From Enterobacteria phage GEC-3S, in the sequence record HE978309: DNA of 64,000 nt. One strand, 5' to 3'. This document shows positions 42,940-51,300 of the stretch, in pieces (the stretch's first letter is position 1; the number at the start of each line of letters is the position of its first letter). The position numbers and the translations under genes are program-made. The notes below the pieces were generated by a model. The model made no database searches, was not told the origin of the DNA, and worked only from the letters and a program-made list of their open reading frames with translations.

Positions 42940-42968
42940 ATTATACACTATTGCGTTACGCTGTCAAC
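42940..42968 (-). promoter_or_regulatory. Sigma70-like early promoter
   Basis: TTGACA - 16 nt - TATAAT. Confidence 0.5.
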
Positions 42969-44134
42969 TCTTTTTCAAAAGATTTTACGATATACATGAT
43001 GGTGCTCAATTCGGACGGCGCTACTGTCTCTGTGTAGCCATCCGGCATATCTTCTTTCGAGATATAGGAAGTTTTACCTTTCATTGCTTCCTTGATTTTG
43101 TTCTCTAATTCTAAGATCTTTTGACCGTCTTGTAAAGTCAATTCATAAAAGATCTCATGATCGAACTTTGAAACACGAGATTGGTTTCTCATGCGCTCAT
43201 GTGTTTCTTTGTTTGTTATTCCAAATTTCACGCCAACAAAGGAATCATTGTTGGTTAATTTCTGTATATAAAGAGTTCCTGTCTTTAATGCCTGATAACC
43301 ATGCTTAGAACACAACGGGCAGCGTGTTCCGCGATTAACAAAATTATCAATAGTTACATCCCATTCATGGTTACGTTCGCATGTCAGAAGTATTCTTGTT
43401 AATGCACCTTTCCACTTTCCTGAAATCCCAATAAATTTTAGTCTGTTGGTTTCGCATATTTTTTCAATTTGTTTTAATCGGTCACTTTTTGTTATTGGTG
43501 CTGTTCCGCTACATTTGCGACACCGACGACCTAGTTTGAACTTATCATAACTTTGTTCGTAAATGTGATTATTAGGACACTCAAATTTAAGTTTAGTTTT
43601 TGTTCCTCTCCATTCCCCAATTATACCCAAAAATTTATAATCTCCTTTATTTTCATTTATATAAGATAAGGAATCTTCTTTATCATGCATCTTGCCCCCG
43701 TTACATAAAGGACATCTTGTTTTTTGATGAATGAAATCTGTATATGTTGGTTGGTATGTGTGTCCGTTTGTACAGTTCATAATGAGTCTTGTTCTGCTAT
43801 TTTTATACTCCCCACCAACAAAACCAACAAATACATCGTTTGTTTCTTGTTTTATTCTTTCTATCACATTGTTTGGGTTTAATCTTTGAGAATCAACCAC
43901 ACATTTCTTACACGAAACTTTTTTCCTGATATTTGCTAGAGTTGATGTGTATTCATGCTTGTTATTACATAATATAAGAGCTTTTGTTTTGAGACCAGAC
44001 CATTCTCCAACAAACCCCATGAAAGAATAACCAACTTCCAAACATGATTTTTTTACAACATTTTCCCAATAGAAGGGAGTTTTCGTGTTTCCTTTTATTT
44101 CTATACGAATCTCATGTGCTTGACGTACTAACAT
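42956..44134 (-). CDS. Four tandem Cys/His zinc-ribbon repeats plus C-terminal T5orf172/GIY-YIG-like domain
   Basis: Four ~45-aa repeats each with C..H...CxxC, then LYIQKL...FVGVKFGIT...R; ATG at 44134 with GGAGGAT RBS. Confidence 0.6.
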   Translation of the reverse strand: MLVRQAHEIRIEIKGNTKTPFYWENVVKKSCLEVGYSFMGFVGEWSGLKTKALILCNNKHEYTSTLANIRKKVSCKKCVVDSQRLNPNNVIERIKQETNDVFVGFVGGEYKNSRTRLIMNCTNGHTYQPTYTDFIHQKTRCPLCNGGKMHDKEDSLSYINENKGDYKFLGIIGEWRGTKTKLKFECPNNHIYEQSYDKFKLGRRCRKCSGTAPITKSDRLKQIEKICETNRLKFIGISGKWKGALTRILLTCERNHEWDVTIDNFVNRGTRCPLCSKHGYQALKTGTLYIQKLTNNDSFVGVKFGITNKETHERMRNQSRVSKFDHEIFYELTLQDGQKILELENKIKEAMKGKTSYISKEDMPDGYTETVAPSELSTIMYIVKSFEKELTA

Positions 44135-44164
44135 ATTTTTATCCTCCGTTGTTTCGATGATTGT

Positions 44165-44193
44165 ATTATACATTACCACATCAGCATGTCAAT
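44165..44193 (-). promoter_or_regulatory. Sigma70-like early promoter
   Basis: TTGACA - 16 nt - TATAAT. Confidence 0.5.
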
Positions 44194-44217
44194 ACATTTT
44201 CATAAAATTTTAGGCAA

Positions 44218-44246
44218 TAAAAAAGCCTTCCCGAAGGAAGGCTTTA
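44218..44246 (-). terminator. Rho-independent terminator after gene 32
   Basis: AAAAAA-GCCTTCC-CGAA-GGAAGGC on plus strand. Confidence 0.6.
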
Positions 44247-44253
44247 AAATTCA

Positions 44254-45222
44254 TTACATCGCTAACAGAGAGTCAAGGTCATCCAGATCAGAAGCGGAGG
44301 AAGTACCGCCACCCAGGTCCAGAGATGCCATCAGGTCATCAGCGGAAGAATCTAACGCCGTGCTAGCTGCGTTAATACCAACTACAGTGCTAGCTGCGGT
44401 AATACCAGAGTCGAATGCATTCATCTGTGCGTCAAAATCGTCAAGCTGACTGTTAATCGCTGCCGCAGCACTGGAAGCCGCAGCACCCGCTACCATAGAA
44501 ACGCCCATAGTTTTCTTAAATTTGGTTTCCAGTTCATCGAACGGTTTAAACTGGCTAGGCGCTACAATCTCACTCAGATCAACCATGTTTTCCATCAGAT
44601 ATTTCTGATATGCTTCGTCTTCAATCTTCGGAAGCTGTGATTGCTGCATGAAACGAGAATCATCATAGTTCTGGTGTTTATCAACCTTCTTAGCTTTCAG
44701 GAGGAAGTTAGCACCGGAGAACACACAAGTTACATCTACCGGAACTTCGCCCATGTCGGTATTCACGTTCACCATTGCAACGATCTTATCATAAATTTTC
44801 TGACCGAATCGGAATTTGAATACTTTACCTTCATTTTCTGGTGCTTGAGGATCTTTCAGTACAAGAATGTTTGCGTAGTAAGACGCTTTACGCTTAATCA
44901 GTTGCCATTCGGTTTTATCGGTATTGTATAGGTCTTTTTCGTTAATATATTTGCACACAGGGCAAGAATCAAAATCACCGTGGGTGCTGGAGCAGTTTTC
45001 CCAATACCATTTACCATTAACTTTGAAGGAATGGTTTACCAGTTTCACAATCGGCAGACCGTCTTCTGTCTTAGACGGCAGGAAGCGAATCAGGGCTTCA
45101 CCGTTACCTGCTGCATCAGTCTTAATCTTCCACTCTTTCGGATCTTCTTTTGAGAAACCGTTGCCACCTTTCAGTGCGGCCAGTTGAGCTTGCAGTTTGG
45201 AAGAATCTTGGCGTTTAAACAT
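44254..45222 (-). CDS. 32: Single-stranded DNA-binding protein gp32
   Basis: Aligns with T4 gp32 (MFKR; [13 protein letters not shown]; [22 protein letters not shown]; [12 protein letters not shown]; DLDSLLAM); ATG at 45222. Confidence 0.93.
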
Positions 45223-45282
45223 ATTCACTATTCCTTCTTTTGATTAATTTACTAGACTATTATACAGATTTAAATTTACTTG

Positions 45283-45963
45283 TCAACTATTTGTTTCGGC
45301 TTTTAATTGAGATATTTCTTTACACTCTTTAACTACTTTAACAAATAATGCTCTTGCTTTTGCGGCGTCAATAACAAGTAGTTTCTTGTACGCCTTCATT
45401 TTAACACTATAAGTTTGCCAAATCAAGTCTTTGGCTACCTTGTCGTGTTCGTCGATTATATTTAGAAAGCTATCTAACAACATAAACGACTCAAACGATA
45501 TAATCCGATTTTGCAGTAGTTTAAAGATACCGCTAGTTTCGGTTGCGGGATTGTATGTAATTAGCTCTTTAAGAGTAACCCCGCGTTTCTCGGAGAAGTA
45601 TACCAGACTTTTAATGTCATCGTCAAATCTTGTTGCTGCATCGGTTATCTTTCCTATGTATTCCATATAAAAGCCGTATGCGTCAACATCAGTGATTTCA
45701 CCTACCCATGCATCGGTATTAGCTACCAGATTGCTTAGGAATAAGAAGTATAATTCTCTTAGATTGTACTTTTCCGCTAATTTTGCGAAATAATACTTAT
45801 CTCTGCGTTTATTGAATGCGGCATCAGACAACCGCATCCTCCAATTGTATTTTACGCAATCATAACGCCCGTTCATATGAGCTTTCATCATGCAATATAA
45901 CATATACACAGATTTAGCATTAATTCGCATATCTGGATCTGGAGGAAGACGGTTTCTGATCAT
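45283..45963 (-). CDS. 59: Helicase loader gp59
   Basis: Aligns with T4 gp59 (KSVY.LY.M.K.HMNG.YD..KYNW.MR.SDAA; FLSNLVAN.DAW; ISFE.F.LLDSFLNIID). Confidence 0.9.
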   Translation of the reverse strand: MIRNRLPPDPDMRINAKSVYMLYCMMKAHMNGRYDCVKYNWRMRLSDAAFNKRRDKYYFAKLAEKYNLRELYFLFLSNLVANTDAWVGEITDVDAYGFYMEYIGKITDAATRFDDDIKSLVYFSEKRGVTLKELITYNPATETSGIFKLLQNRIISFESFMLLDSFLNIIDEHDKVAKDLIWQTYSVKMKAYKKLLVIDAAKARALFVKVVKECKEISQLKAETNS

Positions 45964-45972
45964 ACATACCCC

Positions 45973-46242
45973 TTAAATATCGAGAGTGTTGGTCGGTTCG
46001 TCGATCACTCCCTTCCTGAGCGTTCTATTTACTATACATTCTTGTGTGATCTTGTCAATAATGGACACCGGAATATACTTCTGATAGTGACCATATTCTA
46101 TAGAGTTTTCCTCGACAAACTGAGTTGTCGCTTCAAGATAAGTCAATCCCTCTTCAACAACCAGTTTTTCGATTGCAAGACCGTTTGCTGTTTTATTCGC
46201 GGCTTTTACCGCATGTTCATTAAGCATTGAACACCCGATCAT
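45973..46242 (-). CDS. 33: Late-transcription co-activator gp33
   Basis: IEKLVVEEGLTYLEATTQFVEENSI ... NTLDI aligns with T4 gp33 C-terminal region; N-terminus shorter than T4. Confidence 0.75.
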   Translation of the reverse strand: MIGCSMLNEHAVKAANKTANGLAIEKLVVEEGLTYLEATTQFVEENSIEYGHYQKYIPVSIIDKITQECIVNRTLRKGVIDEPTNTLDI

Positions 46243-46495
46243 AGAGTTCTACCGCTTCATCGCGTTCTGCTTCGAAGGTTTCGCGCTGTTGCTGGTGATA
46301 CAGTTTAAACAGAATGCCCCACATTTTACCATCTACACCTAATTCTTCTTTAGCACGCTGTTTGATCTCTTTGATCTTATCGCCATATGCTTCTTGAATG
46401 GTTTTCTGATCGCTGGCTTCTTTAATCAGTTGTGCCAGGGTATTTCCGTGCGCTGCTTCGTCAAATACTACTTTTTCTTTTTTCTGTTCAGTCAT
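46220..46495 (-). CDS. dsbA: dsDNA-binding protein DsbA
   Basis: Aligns with T4 DsbA (FDEA.HG..LA..IKEASD; RAKDELGVDGKM; FEAE..E.VELYD.VF). Confidence 0.85.
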   Translation of the reverse strand: MTEQKKEKVVFDEAAHGNTLAQLIKEASDQKTIQEAYGDKIKEIKQRAKEELGVDGKMWGILFKLYHQQQRETFEAERDEAVELYDRVFNA

Positions 46496-46499
46496 AATA

Positions 46500-47096
46500 T
46501 TAACCCTCTTTCGTCATTAATTGAAAACCACGTTCAGCTTTTGAAATTTCGCTAGGACTTAAATCGTCACCCACATATTCTAGCATCATTTCTCGGATAA
46601 TGTCAAGTGCTTTTTCATCGCCTGATTTTAACTCAAACTCAAGTTCATAGTGAGCATCTCCCATTACTTCGCCGACTTTGCAATAATAGAAAGTGTCTCT
46701 GCACATTTCCACTATACCACAACCCATATCTAGAGTCAATGACTTGCGGTATGTCATTACTTGAAGTAAAGGAACGATAAGGTCGGAGTTTACGCCTAGA
46801 CTATCAACATAGTGATAGAAATCATCCATTGTTGAAAAAGTAATTTCTTCTCGGTTGAATAGTCCAGATTCACCATCACCTATTTTGACCATGATCAATG
46901 ATCTATTAACGTCAAGTCGTGCATAAATTCCTTTTTGACGTAGAGCATGATCTTTGGTATCATAATAAAATTCGTGTTTTATAATGTTATCTCGGTCTAC
47001 GAGATTGTACCCGTCATACATTGCTACCCACAAATCACAGATTGTTTCGACGCCAATTTGTGAGTGTGCATAGTATTTTAATTCAAGTTCTTTCAT
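46500..47096 (-). CDS. CYTH-like (triphosphate tunnel metalloenzyme) domain protein
   Basis: N-terminal ELELKY (ExExK) and C-terminal YELEFELK, basic residues between, consistent with CYTH signature; function inferred. Confidence 0.55.
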   Translation of the reverse strand: MKELELKYYAHSQIGVETICDLWVAMYDGYNLVDRDNIIKHEFYYDTKDHALRQKGIYARLDVNRSLIMVKIGDGESGLFNREEITFSTMDDFYHYVDSLGVNSDLIVPLLQVMTYRKSLTLDMGCGIVEMCRDTFYYCKVGEVMGDAHYELEFELKSGDEKALDIIREMMLEYVGDDLSPSEISKAERGFQLMTKEG

Positions 47097-47106
47097 GTGT
47101 CAACCC

Positions 47107-48054
47107 TTAGAACTCACCAATTTTCTGCAACATTTTAACTAACGCATTTGTTACAAAATAGTTATAAATTTTACCGCGTGGTGCTGGTTTAGATTTTTCC
47201 CATGACTCCAGAATCTGAGTCTTAATATTGTCTGGGATGTAATCGAAATCAATAAGTTCGCGGTTTTCGTCAAAGCGTCGTGCTTCTTCCTCTGTCATTA
47301 AAGACTTTGGATCTTCGGCATCGAAAATTTGCTCTAACCATTTGGTTGCAACCGGTTTAGCTCGTTCCCCTTCCAGTCGAGAGATAATGAAATCACTACG
47401 ACACTTGACAGAAGCCACACCGTCTTTTGCGTCACCCTTAACACATTTTACCATAAGGTCTTTGTAAGGGCTACCATATTTGCATTTCTTCCATGCTTTC
47501 TGTACTGGCGCCCACTGTTTCACGTTTTTGTATTTGTGCAACTGCGTGTAGTCACCATCACCGGAGTTGATCAGCACCTGGCGACCTTCTACAGAAAACT
47601 TTTTAGTTAATACAGCGATTATATCATCCGCTTCAACTTTGTCAACCTTAATAACGTGATAAGGCATATTCTCTTTAAACTCTTCGGTGATCTTATTGAT
47701 CGCAGCAAAGATCATCTCCCAATCACGCGGATCTGCGTCTCGCTTTTCCTTACGGTTGCGTTTATAGTAAGGGGCGATATCACGTCGCCAGTAACCTTTG
47801 CTTGAATCAAAAGCAAGTACCGTAATAGGGTATTGCTCTTTGAATTTTGTCATATTATAACGCATGGTGTCAAGAATAAGATGACGGATCATGCCTTCAT
47901 TAATAGGATCTTCCGGTTTAAATGTATGCGAGATAGTAGCAATCATAAGCTGTGACATATCAATCAAATGCACACCTTCCGGCAGTTTATCTTCTGGATC
48001 ATCGAAGAAATCATTAAGTGTAGCGGTAGTTTTTGTAAACGGGTTATATGTCAT
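47107..48054 (-). CDS. rnh: RNase H / 5'-3' exonuclease (FEN-like)
   Basis: Aligns with T4 RNase H (GYWRRD.A.YYK.NR; HKYKNVKQW; DFDYIPDNI; PRGKIY.YFV). Confidence 0.9.
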   Translation of the reverse strand: MTYNPFTKTTATLNDFFDDPEDKLPEGVHLIDMSQLMIATISHTFKPEDPINEGMIRHLILDTMRYNMTKFKEQYPITVLAFDSSKGYWRRDIAPYYKRNRKEKRDADPRDWEMIFAAINKITEEFKENMPYHVIKVDKVEADDIIAVLTKKFSVEGRQVLINSGDGDYTQLHKYKNVKQWAPVQKAWKKCKYGSPYKDLMVKCVKGDAKDGVASVKCRSDFIISRLEGERAKPVATKWLEQIFDAEDPKSLMTEEEARRFDENRELIDFDYIPDNIKTQILESWEKSKPAPRGKIYNYFVTNALVKMLQKIGEF

Positions 48055-48056
48055 AA

Positions 48057-48242
48057 TTAAGTTCTCTCCACTCTCACAACAACATATTCGCCAAACGAGT
48101 TAGATACTTCACGATCATAACCGTACTTCTCCATAACTCGCAGAATTGCATTGTTTAATTCGGCGCGGAAATAATTGTAATCCTTATCAGGGATTCTGTC
48201 AACTACCCATTTTGCACCGTCTGACAAATCAACTTTAACCAT
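48057..48242 (-). CDS. Hypothetical small protein (61 aa)
   Basis: ORF with AAGAGGAT RBS; stop abuts rnh start. Confidence 0.5.
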   Translation of the reverse strand: MVKVDLSDGAKWVVDRIPDKDYNYFRAELNNAILRVMEKYGYDREVSNSFGEYVVVRVERT

Positions 48243-48280
48243 AATATATCATCCTCTTTTGTTTCTATCAAGCCTTATTT

Positions 48281-48288
48281 TATAAATA
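48281..48288 (+). promoter_or_regulatory. T4-type late promoter (TATAAATA) for gene 34
   Basis: Exact TATAAATA 29 nt upstream of gene 34 ATG; AAGGAG RBS. Confidence 0.6.
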
Positions 48289-48316
48289 TGATCATACTAT
48301 AAAAGGAGACCCAATA

Positions 48317-51300
48317 ATGGCAGATTTTTCTCAACATTTCAAGGCCACATTTGGCTTTGACGCTGGTAATGAAAAGGTCGTCAATGTAGCATTGGCTGAT
48401 AAGAATGTCAACACCGATGCGGTCAACGTTGAATTTTTCAATTACCATAATGGTATTACTCAGTATGACACAACTCGCGGTTATGATCAATACGGAACTA
48501 CAATCTATCAAAACCGTCCGTATTATGCAAAAGAAGATATCACAAAACCAGCAGGTGATTTTGACCCGACTAAATGGCAAGCACTGCGCACGGACCCACG
48601 TTGGGATTATATTGCAGCAACTTCCGGTGATACTCCTTTACAGTCTGGTGATTATATCGCAGCAGATGGTCAATTTGCAAACTTGACTTTCTCTATGCCA
48701 ACTAAACCAGCAGAGGGAGACACTATAACAGTAAAAGATATCGGTGGCAAGTGTGGTGTTAACGAATTATCGTTCTTGAGTTCAGGACATGAGTTTTACC
48801 ATAACGGTAATGTGTATAACCGAAAATGGTATTGCACTACCCCGTATGCAATGAACTATTTCATCTTTGTTCGTAATCGTTGGCATGTTTATCAGACAGG
48901 AACAGAGCCACGCGGTGTGTACGCACAGCCAGCGATTGATGCTATTCAAATGCAGAATGGTGATCAGGTCTTTCGTCGTAGTTCGTTGGGTAATATTACC
49001 TTAGTGCTTCCTAAGTTTGCCAACAATGGCGACATGATCCAGACTACAGACCTTGACGGATTAACCGCAACCAACCACGTTACGGTTAAAGTTCATGAGC
49101 ACGCAGAAGAACAATCAATTGGCACGTCCGGTCTAAAAGAGATTATCGGTAAGCGTAGCGGTCATGGTGTATTCATCTTTGACAAGACGGAAAACTTATG
49201 GCGTTTGTGGGATGGTGATCAGTCTGTTCGTCTTAAACCGATCATCGATGACACTCGCTTGCAACCTAATAGCTATGTTGCCGTATTTGGTGATCGTGAT
49301 GTTACTCTGACGCTGCCGACCAATGTCGAGCCGGGTGATCGTATTCAAGTTTCTATGCAGTATATGCACGGAAACCAGAATTGCCGTATTATCACCGCCA
49401 CAGAGGATACAAAAATCCTTATGCAGAAAAACATGGTTCAGTTTCCTAAGCGTAGCGAGTACCCATTCAATGGGACCGATACATGGACGGGAGTTTCTGA
49501 ATTGTCTTTCAACGCTGCAAATGATTATGTACCTTATCTGGAGTTCTCTTATTCAGAAGGTGATGATGGTAAGAAATACTGGTTGGTGGCACATGCTCAC
49601 CCGATTGTAGAACGAGTAGATCCGACTCGTAAAGACCGTGTTGGTGTAATTGCACTGGCTACCCAGGATGAAACAAACAAAAACCATGAAGATAATCCTA
49701 GCGACGAAGTTGCGGTGACTCCAAAGGTTCTGGCTAATAAAACAGCCAACGAAACTCGACGCGGTATTGCTCGCATTGCGACTCAAGCGGAAACGCATCA
49801 AGATACTGGTTCTAACTTCCTGGATGATGTTATCGTTACGCCTAAAAAGTTAAATGACTGTGTTGCTACCGAAGCCCGTCGTGGTGTGATGGAAATTGCA
49901 ACCCAGCACGAAACCAATGAAGGTTTAGACGATACCCGCGCTATTACTCCTAAGAAATTAGAAGAACGTCGCGCTTCCGAAGATCTCGCTGGTATTGCTG
50001 AAATTGTTCAGGTTGGCGGTAGTGCTGCCGCTCGACGTGGCGAAGCTGGTACAGGGATCTATAACATCAATGACCATGCTAAAATTGTTACGCCAAAAAA
50101 CATCAACGAAGTCAAGGCGACCGAAACTTCCCGTGGTGTTGGCTATCTGGCAACTGACGCGGAAGTGCAAGGGGCTACAGAATCAACCCCGCAAGATGCT
50201 TTACTAATCACTACTCGCACGCTAACTAAACGTACTGCTACCGAATCGCGCACTGGTATCGCTGAAATTGCAACTCAGGAAGAAACAAACTTAGGTCAAA
50301 GTGATAACCATATCATCACGCCTAAAAAGCTGCATACTCGCCGCGCAACGGAAACTTTACATGGTTTAGCAGAAATTGCAACTCAACCGGAGTTTGACGC
50401 AGGTCTTGACGATGCTCGCATTTCTACCCCATTGAAGATTAAAACCTTCTTTGAGAATGCACAGCGTTTGAAAGTAGATCCGACTCAGGGGCTTAACCTT
50501 ACTGGTGATTTGTGGCAAGGTATCATGATCAGCGGTCTGGATGCAACCGAAGACACAAAAGGTGTCGCTAAAGTTGCTACTACTCAGCTTACGGATGCTG
50601 GTCAAGATGATACTACAATCATCACGCCTAAAAAGCTGCAAGGCAAAAAAGCCACCGAAGGTAAAGAAGGTATTATCCGCGTTGGTACTCAAGCCGAAAC
50701 CGTGGCTGGTACACTGGCTAATGTAGCAATTTCTCCGAAGAACTTCAAATATGTTGTTCAGACAGAGGATACATGGAAAGCAACCGAAGCGCGTCGTGGA
50801 TTCTTGAAAGTTGCTACTCAGGAAAACTGTTTTGTTGGTGACAATCTGCAAGGTTCTACTCAAGAACTAGGAAACTACCAGCATGACGGAATTGCTGTTA
50901 CCCCGAAAGGATTAAACTATGCACTTGCTAATTTCTTACCTAAGATGGCAACCGCTCAGAATAGTTTGAAATTGGGTAACGTAGAGGCCGCTAAATGGGC
51001 GCGTAGAGACATTGACCAGACCATAGAGAGCAATTACACGTTTAATAAAAACGTTAACGTGAAGGGCGATTTAGGGTGCTTAAAATCTGGTTCCTTTGAA
51101 ACTCTTTCTGTGACTAAGAACTCTACTGATGTTCCGAGTAATGGTCATCTGGTGTTGGGTAAGCGTGGAGTTGACGGTCACACCGGAATTACTCTGCATG
51201 GTACAACCGCATCGGAAGGCATGAAAAACTCGTGGTCTATTATCGTTGGTGGTACTGGAACAGCGCAAGTTGTTGATAGTGATGCTATCGCTTTCGGTCA

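Follow-up and report, generated by a model that had tools for sequence, protein, structure and literature searches.

A stand-alone CYTH/triphosphate tunnel protein with an altered specificity motif, predicted to be a hydrolase, is encoded between rnh and dsbA in phage GEC-3S

What is encoded by the gene that separates rnh from dsbA in Enterobacteria phage GEC-3S, and what might its product do? We analyzed a 64,000-nucleotide (nt) stretch of this phage (HE978309), referred to throughout as the window, with positions counted from its first letter. An earlier note on this DNA had described a CYTH-like protein of 198 amino acids inserted between the two genes. The open reading frame (ORF) was confirmed, with an ATG start and a TAA stop, and lies on the minus strand, which the note had not stated. 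Its position was borne out by the flanking genes, both of which matched Pfam families. The three genes are arranged as follows:

46500-47096, minus strand: coding sequence of the CYTH/triphosphate tunnel metalloenzyme (TTM) protein, 198 amino acids, ortholog of RB49ORF244c (ORF list, Pfam CYTH, phrog_14893 and identity to RB49)
47107-48054, minus strand: rnh (Pfam RNaseH_C, E 1.6e-39), 10 nt upstream of the CYTH gene
46220-46495, minus strand: dsbA (Phage_DsbA, E 5.5e-22), 4 nt downstream of the CYTH gene

The note was also right that T4 has no gene here, as rnh directly adjoins dsbA in T4 (NC_000866), with a gap of only 8 nt. On the downstream side dsbA is followed by genes 33, 59 and 32; upstream, the opposite strand carries gene 34. 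The CYTH ORF matched phrog_14893 (E 2e-133) and shared 93.9% amino acid identity with RB49ORF244c. The 2.3 kb around it were 97.5% identical to RB49 and matched 57 phage records, all of them Krischvirus; the window belongs to an RB49-like T4-type phage of this genus. The CYTH gene was found at the same place in all 57 records and was absent from none of them. Among isolated phages, a tblastn search with P0044 and P0045, the two most distant homologs that share the gene order, brought up no record beyond these 57 of Krischvirus. The ORF did not arise by chance: every matching record carries it, and its ratio of nonsynonymous to synonymous substitution rates (dN/dS) is about 0.26 over ten sequenced relatives. 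A foreign base composition was considered and dismissed, the GC content of the gene (0.37) being unremarkable next to that of the window (0.40).

The product is a stand-alone CYTH/triphosphate tunnel protein that consists of the CYTH domain only. Pfam CYTH (PF01928) matched it at 27.6 bits against a gathering score of 23.2 (E 3.1e-6), and 17 of the 23 members of its family matched the Pfam model individually. A profile of the 23 sequences searched against the sequences of the PDB gave a single match, E. coli YgiF (E 0.003), and a comparison by hhalign with 92 aligned CYTH sequences, YgiF first among them, gave a probability of 99.96% (E 8e-39). The AlphaFold2 model (predicted local distance difference test, pLDDT, 92.8; predicted TM score, pTM, 0.86) contained eight long strands and a C-terminal helix, corresponding to the CYTH superfamily's eight-stranded antiparallel barrel, or tunnel, with its C-terminal plug helix. 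In a Foldseek search of the PDB with this model YgiF was the top match (E 9.6e-13, TM 0.79), followed by plant TTM3, BH2851, SaTTM and thiamine triphosphatase. The family assignment of the earlier note was thus upheld by Pfam, hhalign and the predicted structure, and the outcome that it had named as fatal, a fold that does not support an eight-strand tunnel, did not occur. No CHAD domain was matched in the 198-residue protein by Pfam, and an NCBIfam scan returned no match at E<=10.

Both motifs named in the note were found. The N-terminal ExExK motif is present as ELELK at residues 3-7. The second motif, which the note had placed at the end of the protein, is present as ELEFELK but occupies residues 151-157, about 40 residues before the C-terminus. 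Across the 23 family sequences, which are 48-95% identical, the invariant residues were E3, E5, K7, R60, K71, R82, E84, R117, E151, E153, E155, K186 and R189. With hhalign and three MAFFT modes, E3/E5/K7 aligned to E4/E6/K8 of YgiF, R60 to R56, K71 to K69, R82/E84 to R81/E83, E151 to E158, E153 to E160 and E155 to E162. The main elements are located as follows:

47076-47090, minus strand: ExExK motif E3-L-E5-L-K7, invariant, with E3 and E5 as predicted ligands of metal site 2; aligns to YgiF E4/E6/K8
46911-46925, minus strand: Y58-A-R60-L-D62, with R60 as the predicted catalytic Arg; maps to YgiF G54/R56/R58 (hhalign, three MAFFT modes)
46884-46886, minus strand: K71, invariant equivalent of YgiF K69, predicted to bind substrate and to orient the first Glu (role per Martinez 2015)
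46626-46646, minus strand: E151-L-E153-F-E155-L-K157 on the last long strand, with E153 as predicted ligand of metal 1 and E155 of metal 2, both invariant; aligns to YgiF E158/E160/E162
46527-46544, minus strand: S-K186-A-E-R189-G in the C-terminal plug helix (helix predicted for residues 186-195), with K186 and R189 invariant; aligned to YgiF SKAARG

The metal-binding ExE on the last strand and the basic residues of the tunnel were therefore all found, the sole exception being the second Arg of the specificity strand, which is D62. In structures of YgiF with inorganic triphosphate (PPPi) and metal, metal 1 is bound by E160, and metal 2, which carries the attacking water, by E4, E6 and E162; mutational data exist for E6, R56 and E160, and loss of R56 abolishes activity (Martinez 2015, PMC4641920). 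That this two-metal machinery is conserved in full speaks for an active enzyme and against a protein that only binds. By analogy with YgiF, the phage protein quite likely removes the terminal phosphate from a small triphosphate substrate by two-metal hydrolysis that depends on Mg2+/Mn2+. The triphosphate end of the substrate would be held in the barrel by K7, R60, K71, R82, R117, K186 and R189, and metal 1 would link E153 to the phosphates. E3, E5 and E155 would coordinate metal 2, which in turn would activate a water for attack on the terminal phosphate, and R60 would aid the leaving group.

In HMMER pairwise alignments the Y58/R60 strand was shifted by two residues, such that Y58, and not R60, stood opposite R56 of YgiF. 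This register was rejected, since hhalign and three MAFFT modes all gave R60 as the counterpart of R56. It was also contradicted by the distance from YYDT to the Arg, which is 14 residues in the phage protein, in YgiF and in P0046, and by the indels of the family and a predicted turn, which fall at residues 63-66. The equivalence of R60 and R56 is thus taken from alignment and predicted secondary structure only.

A CYTH fold may belong to a hydrolase or to a class IV cyclase, and the earlier note had left open whether the protein makes or destroys nucleotide signals or acts on triphosphate substrates. In class IV cyclases an HF pair stands ahead of ExExK at a distance of four residues (HFxxxxExExK), the second Glu of ExE is changed to Ala, and the first Arg is replaced by a small residue (Vogt 2021, PMC8233210). 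In the phage protein only M1-K2 precede E3, leaving no room for the HF extension; E153-F-E155 is kept and invariant; and the first Arg is kept as R60, aligned to YgiF R56 by hhalign and three MAFFT runs. In this the protein differs from the class IV adenylyl cyclases CyaB and YpAC-IV. YgiF, its closest relative, is a Mg2+-activated and Ca2+-inhibited inorganic triphosphatase (PPPase) that is inactive on ATP, GTP, ITP, pyrophosphate and polyphosphate and has no detectable cyclase activity (Kohn 2012, PMC3440374). Since all three cyclase signatures are absent, the phage protein is most likely a hydrolase and not a cyclase, as predicted from its motifs. Several GenBank records name the protein as a cyclase of this kind, but a class IV adenylyl or other nucleotidyl cyclase that makes cyclic AMP or some other cyclic nucleotide is hardly credible. 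Of the suggestions in the note, action on triphosphate substrates fits the predicted two-metal set, but the making of nucleotide signals does not fit the motifs.

The phage protein departs from its relatives at the strand linked to substrate choice. In this W/Y-x-R-x-R strand the aromatic residue stacks on the thiazole ring in thiamine triphosphatase, and other clusters have a small residue at that position (Vogt 2021, PMC8233210). The phage strand is Y58-A-R60-L-D62 (YxRxD) and thus not the small-x-R-x-R of YgiF-type triphosphatases; set beside the thiamine triphosphatase motif, it has Y58 and R60, with D62 at the second Arg. Among non-phage CYTH proteins of <=235 amino acids, the 91 nearest had no aromatic residue at the first position, which was A, S, G, T, V or C in 89 (the others were one Asn and one Leu). 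The last position was Arg in 89 of the 91, and the full small-x-R-x-R was present in 86. Deeper phage relatives have V-x-R-x-D and I-x-R-x-N here. The tunnel end that faces the plug helix thus appears to have been reshaped in the phage clade, which we offer as a lead and not as a result. With Y58 at the ring-stacking position of thiamine triphosphatase and D62 in place of the second phosphate-binding Arg, an organic triphosphate of the nucleoside or thiamine type seems at least as likely a substrate as PPPi, the default from homology.

The evolution of the gene was compared with that of its neighbors by the Nei-Gojobori method, using ten Krischvirus sequences and the window and excluding comparisons with phage Skers. 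The estimates were:

CYTH gene: dN 0.070, dS 0.27, dN/dS 0.26
rnh: dN 0.012, dS 0.14, dN/dS 0.085
dsbA: dN 0.0065, dS 0.093, dN/dS 0.07
gene 59: dN 0.0035, dS 0.070, dN/dS 0.05

No gene-wide positive selection of the CYTH gene was seen, the dN/dS values of 0.19-0.38 being whole-gene estimates. Against Skers, dS of the CYTH gene was 1.14, compared with 0.07-0.17 for its neighbors. Sliding nucleotide identity to Skers delimited the following feature:

46610-47105, minus strand: divergence island covering approximately codons 1-160 of the CYTH gene

Identity within the island was 51-66%, whereas the flanking 3 kb (45283-48317) were mostly 95-100% identical, the exceptions being two 100-nt windows (82% and 92%) and the final 34 nt of the comparison. 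Other Krischviruses showed patchy, segment-wise differences of identity elsewhere in the CYTH gene. The sharp island and this patchiness together suggest repeated intragenic recombination. In contrast to the island, most genomes compared shared 97-100% identity over the last ~40 codons (46500-46630), even at third positions; in Brandy and JK32 the figure was 92-98%. This 3' block may be constrained as a regulatory region, because it holds a sigma-70-like site and the GAGGG Shine-Dalgarno sequence of dsbA. Our reading is that the gene is functional and subject to purifying selection, and that divergent alleles have repeatedly traded its first 160 codons. Fast evolution and a recombination mosaic are associated with host-interaction genes, and the pattern is that expected of such a gene; an accessory gene under weaker constraint would explain it equally well.

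A search of 1.84 billion representative proteins returned six below E 1e-10, of which P0040, P0043, P0044 and P0045 form the phage clade and P0046 and P0047 are the other two. On the metagenomic contigs of P0043, P0044 and P0045, the CYTH gene stood directly upstream of dsbA and gene 33, and rnh was visible upstream in two of them. DsbA and gp33 of these contigs were 69-81% identical to those of the window, compared with 32-48% for the CYTH proteins. The next relative after the phage clade is P0046, the nearest cellular one located; its gene directly follows that of a PRK-family kinase on an archaeal-type contig (L015, 4797-6606). Since the deeper lineages keep the dsbA/gene 33 synteny and the next relative is on an archaeal-type contig, the gene was acquired once, in an ancestor of the Krischvirus-like group, and then retained its position. 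It belongs to the accessory genes and occurs only in Krischvirus and a small number of uncultured relatives. The pairing of P0046 with a PRK-family kinase resembles the kinase-TTM fusion of plant TTM1/2, and in P0049 a CYTH-like N-terminus is fused to an AAA_28 P-loop domain.

The phage protein was also set beside known CYTH proteins. E. coli YgiF (PDB 5a60/5a61) is a CYTH-CHAD inorganic triphosphatase of 433 amino acids, compared with 198 and no CHAD domain in the phage protein; it has G54 and R58 where the phage protein has Y58 and D62, the two are only about 25% identical, and the phage is virulent. A recent capture of host ygiF was rejected on the basis of this low identity and the missing CHAD domain. 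Stand-alone bacterial and archaeal CYTH proteins of the NeuTTM/SaTTM type, which make up most of the 215 distant matches, have the same single-domain size of about 200 amino acids and all catalytic motifs, but are mostly small-x-R-x-R, unlike YxRxD. The mammalian 25-kDa thiamine triphosphatase has its second Arg where the phage protein has Asp, and is less similar overall than YgiF. CYTH proteins recur in viruses, T4-type phages included, as in Aeh1ORF004c, Aeromonas phages 65.2 and D3, uncultured Caudovirales and the capping-enzyme triphosphatases of giant viruses. However, these are at most ~15% identical to the phage protein and belong to a different clade, and Aeh1ORF004c is at a different genome position. 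For jumbo-phage CYTH triphosphatases a possible role as degraders of unmodified NTPs has been suggested (Iyer 2021, PMC7824862).

The string ORF246c-rnh-CYTH-dsbA is headed by a 61-amino-acid ORF (48057-48242, minus strand; phrog_3594), the counterpart of RB49ORF246c, which is conserved in the genus Krischvirus (dN/dS about 0.12). Consensus scans gave the following sites:

46577-46606, minus strand: sigma-70-like site TTGACA-N18-TAGAAT with TG, inside the conserved CYTH 3' end; candidate dsbA promoter
47618-47645, minus strand: perfect (12/12) sigma-70-like site TTGACA-N16-TATAAT with TG, inside rnh and ~520 nt upstream of the CYTH start; candidate early promoter
48174-48202, minus strand: strong sigma-70-like match
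48243-48271, minus strand: sigma-70-like site (10/12) with TG, upstream of the 61-amino-acid ORF that heads the string

No terminator-like site was found on the minus strand from the 61-amino-acid ORF to position 45595, and no late-promoter TATAAATA on the minus strand near the CYTH gene. Late expression was rejected for the latter reason. The sigma-70-like sites, the uninterrupted string and the lack of a late-promoter motif indicate that the CYTH gene is probably transcribed early, with rnh and dsbA. In the region 44000-48400 as a whole there were 22 sigma-70-like matches against 13.8 ± 3.3 expected, 19 of them on the minus (coding) strand; the perfect 12/12 sites were at 44192-44165, 45286-45259 and 47645-47618, and some matches lay inside coding sequence.

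Three further explanations concern the substrate or the role of a hydrolase of this kind. The plainest is an inorganic triphosphatase or short-chain polyphosphatase of YgiF- or NeuTTM-like specificity, which would clear PPPi released, for example, by deoxynucleoside triphosphate (dNTP) triphosphohydrolases. YgiF, a specific PPPase (Kohn 2012, PMC3440374), is the nearest protein by sequence profile and by fold, the CDD places the G5211 ortholog in cd07756 (CYTH-like_Pase_CHAD), as cited in that record, and two GenBank records use the name inorganic triphosphatase. The Asp at the second Arg position is no obstacle, since in AtTTM3 this Arg is non-essential and can be lost without a strong drop of PPPase activity (Martinez 2015, PMC4641920). 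Yet YxRxD departs from the small-x-R-x-R pattern exactly at the positions of substrate choice, and the benefit to the phage is questionable when E. coli pyrophosphatase already provides most PPPase activity (Kohn 2012, PMC3440374). The dNTP triphosphohydrolase source of PPPi is moreover our own idea and not the result of any tool. We regard this explanation as possible, if on balance doubtful. A polynucleotide 5'-triphosphatase acting on triphosphorylated RNA, either the pppApC-type Okazaki primers removed by the product of the adjacent rnh or the 5' ends of host mRNA, would suit the location of the gene, but neither a match to the mRNA triphosphatase family nor an open tunnel admitting a polynucleotide end, as in Cet1-like enzymes, was found, and we consider it very improbable.

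The third explanation addresses what the enzyme does in biological terms and can stand alongside the hydrolase mechanism. The enzyme would act in counter-defense or erase a stress signal by hydrolyzing a triphosphate-bearing host molecule, such as the deoxyinosine triphosphate (dITP) of Kongming, (p)ppGpp or pppApp, thiamine triphosphate or its adenylated form (ThTP/AThTP), or 5'-triphosphorylated linear oligonucleotides. In favor, the gene is accessory: T4 lacks it and, within the phage collection, it is confined to Krischvirus; it is probably part of an early operon, evolves several-fold faster than its neighbors with a recombination mosaic, and has a specificity pocket that is predicted to be reshaped. 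On the other hand, a PADLOC scan gave no match at E<=10, as did NCBIfam, the Kongming study found a monophosphatase rather than a triphosphatase as the phage countermeasure, and cyclic-oligonucleotide signals carry no triphosphate. The fast evolution may also reflect relaxed constraint on a dispensable gene, one copy of which is frameshifted. In the literature no published link of CYTH proteins to phage counter-defense was found. An anti-defense role is accordingly speculation, and we rate the signal-eraser explanation as unlikely. Its most specific form is that the Krischvirus-type clade is a phage-specific TTM hydrolase with a pocket rebuilt around YxRxD and destroys not PPPi but a triphosphate-carrying alarm or immune nucleotide of the host, with the divergence island as the trace of an arms race; this we hold to be decidedly unlikely.

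Four points weigh against the reading of the gene as a functional, probably early hydrolase gene with a reshaped pocket. The copy in phage vB_EcoM_G2494 (MK327935; L017, 301-896) has a 1-nt deletion at codon 59, inside YARLD, and is annotated as two ORFs; it is either a sequencing error or a pseudogene of this one isolate, in which latter case the CYTH gene may be dispensable. By analogy with AtTTM3, D62 does not exclude PPPi as the substrate. The predicted timing of expression rests on consensus matches only. Finally, HMMER's own pairwise alignments place Y58 opposite the catalytic Arg of YgiF.

The identification of the gene product as a CYTH/YgiF relative was already known and has been in the records of RB49-type phages since 2003. 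The GenBank entry of RB49 notes RB49ORF244c as "similar to P45267, P30871, HI1598, ygiF", and the protein was listed with a CYTH domain match (Nolan 2006, PMC1524935). Later records differ in their names, with "inorganic triphosphatase" in two Makalu records and "adenylate cyclase" in four GenBank records; the latter label is not supported by the motifs and is most likely wrong. In the literature no functional study of the Krischvirus CYTH protein was found. The points newly added here are the change of motif to YxRxD and the divergence island over codons 1-160, and neither records nor papers were found to mention that three deeper lineages, all uncultured, keep the gene upstream of dsbA and gene 33.

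Two further features of the neighborhood were observed. Downstream of gene 32, at the position of RB49ORF239c, an ORF of 407 amino acids (42956-44179, minus strand) contains the CapR homology domain four times (PF21817, E 9e-30) and also matches treble-clef zinc fingers. The gap between genes 59 and 32, in which the window and RB49 have nothing, holds an HNH homing endonuclease gene in Skers (L002, 5802-6398) and the GIY-YIG endonuclease SegG in T4 (L004, 1910-2542). Cognac has an unnamed ORF there (L010, 3202-3397) of the same size and position as in Skers, probably an HNH endonuclease. The gap looks like a recurrent insertion site of homing endonucleases.

The family assignment itself adds nothing new, the similarity to YgiF/CYTH having been public since deposition of the RB49 genome. 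The motif tests are of value for annotation, as they contradict the name "adenylate cyclase" in several ortholog records. The CYTH gene is a conserved, probably early, fast-evolving accessory enzyme gene of a well-studied phage group, and Y58 and D62 make the idea of an altered specificity testable. If the enzyme destroys a host alarm or immune nucleotide, it would represent a new enzymatic class of phage counter-defense, and the arms race would be with host systems that sense the enzyme or are blocked by it. Should its substrate prove to be a signaling or stress nucleotide, the gene would be a useful tool for studying nucleotide-based immunity in E. coli.
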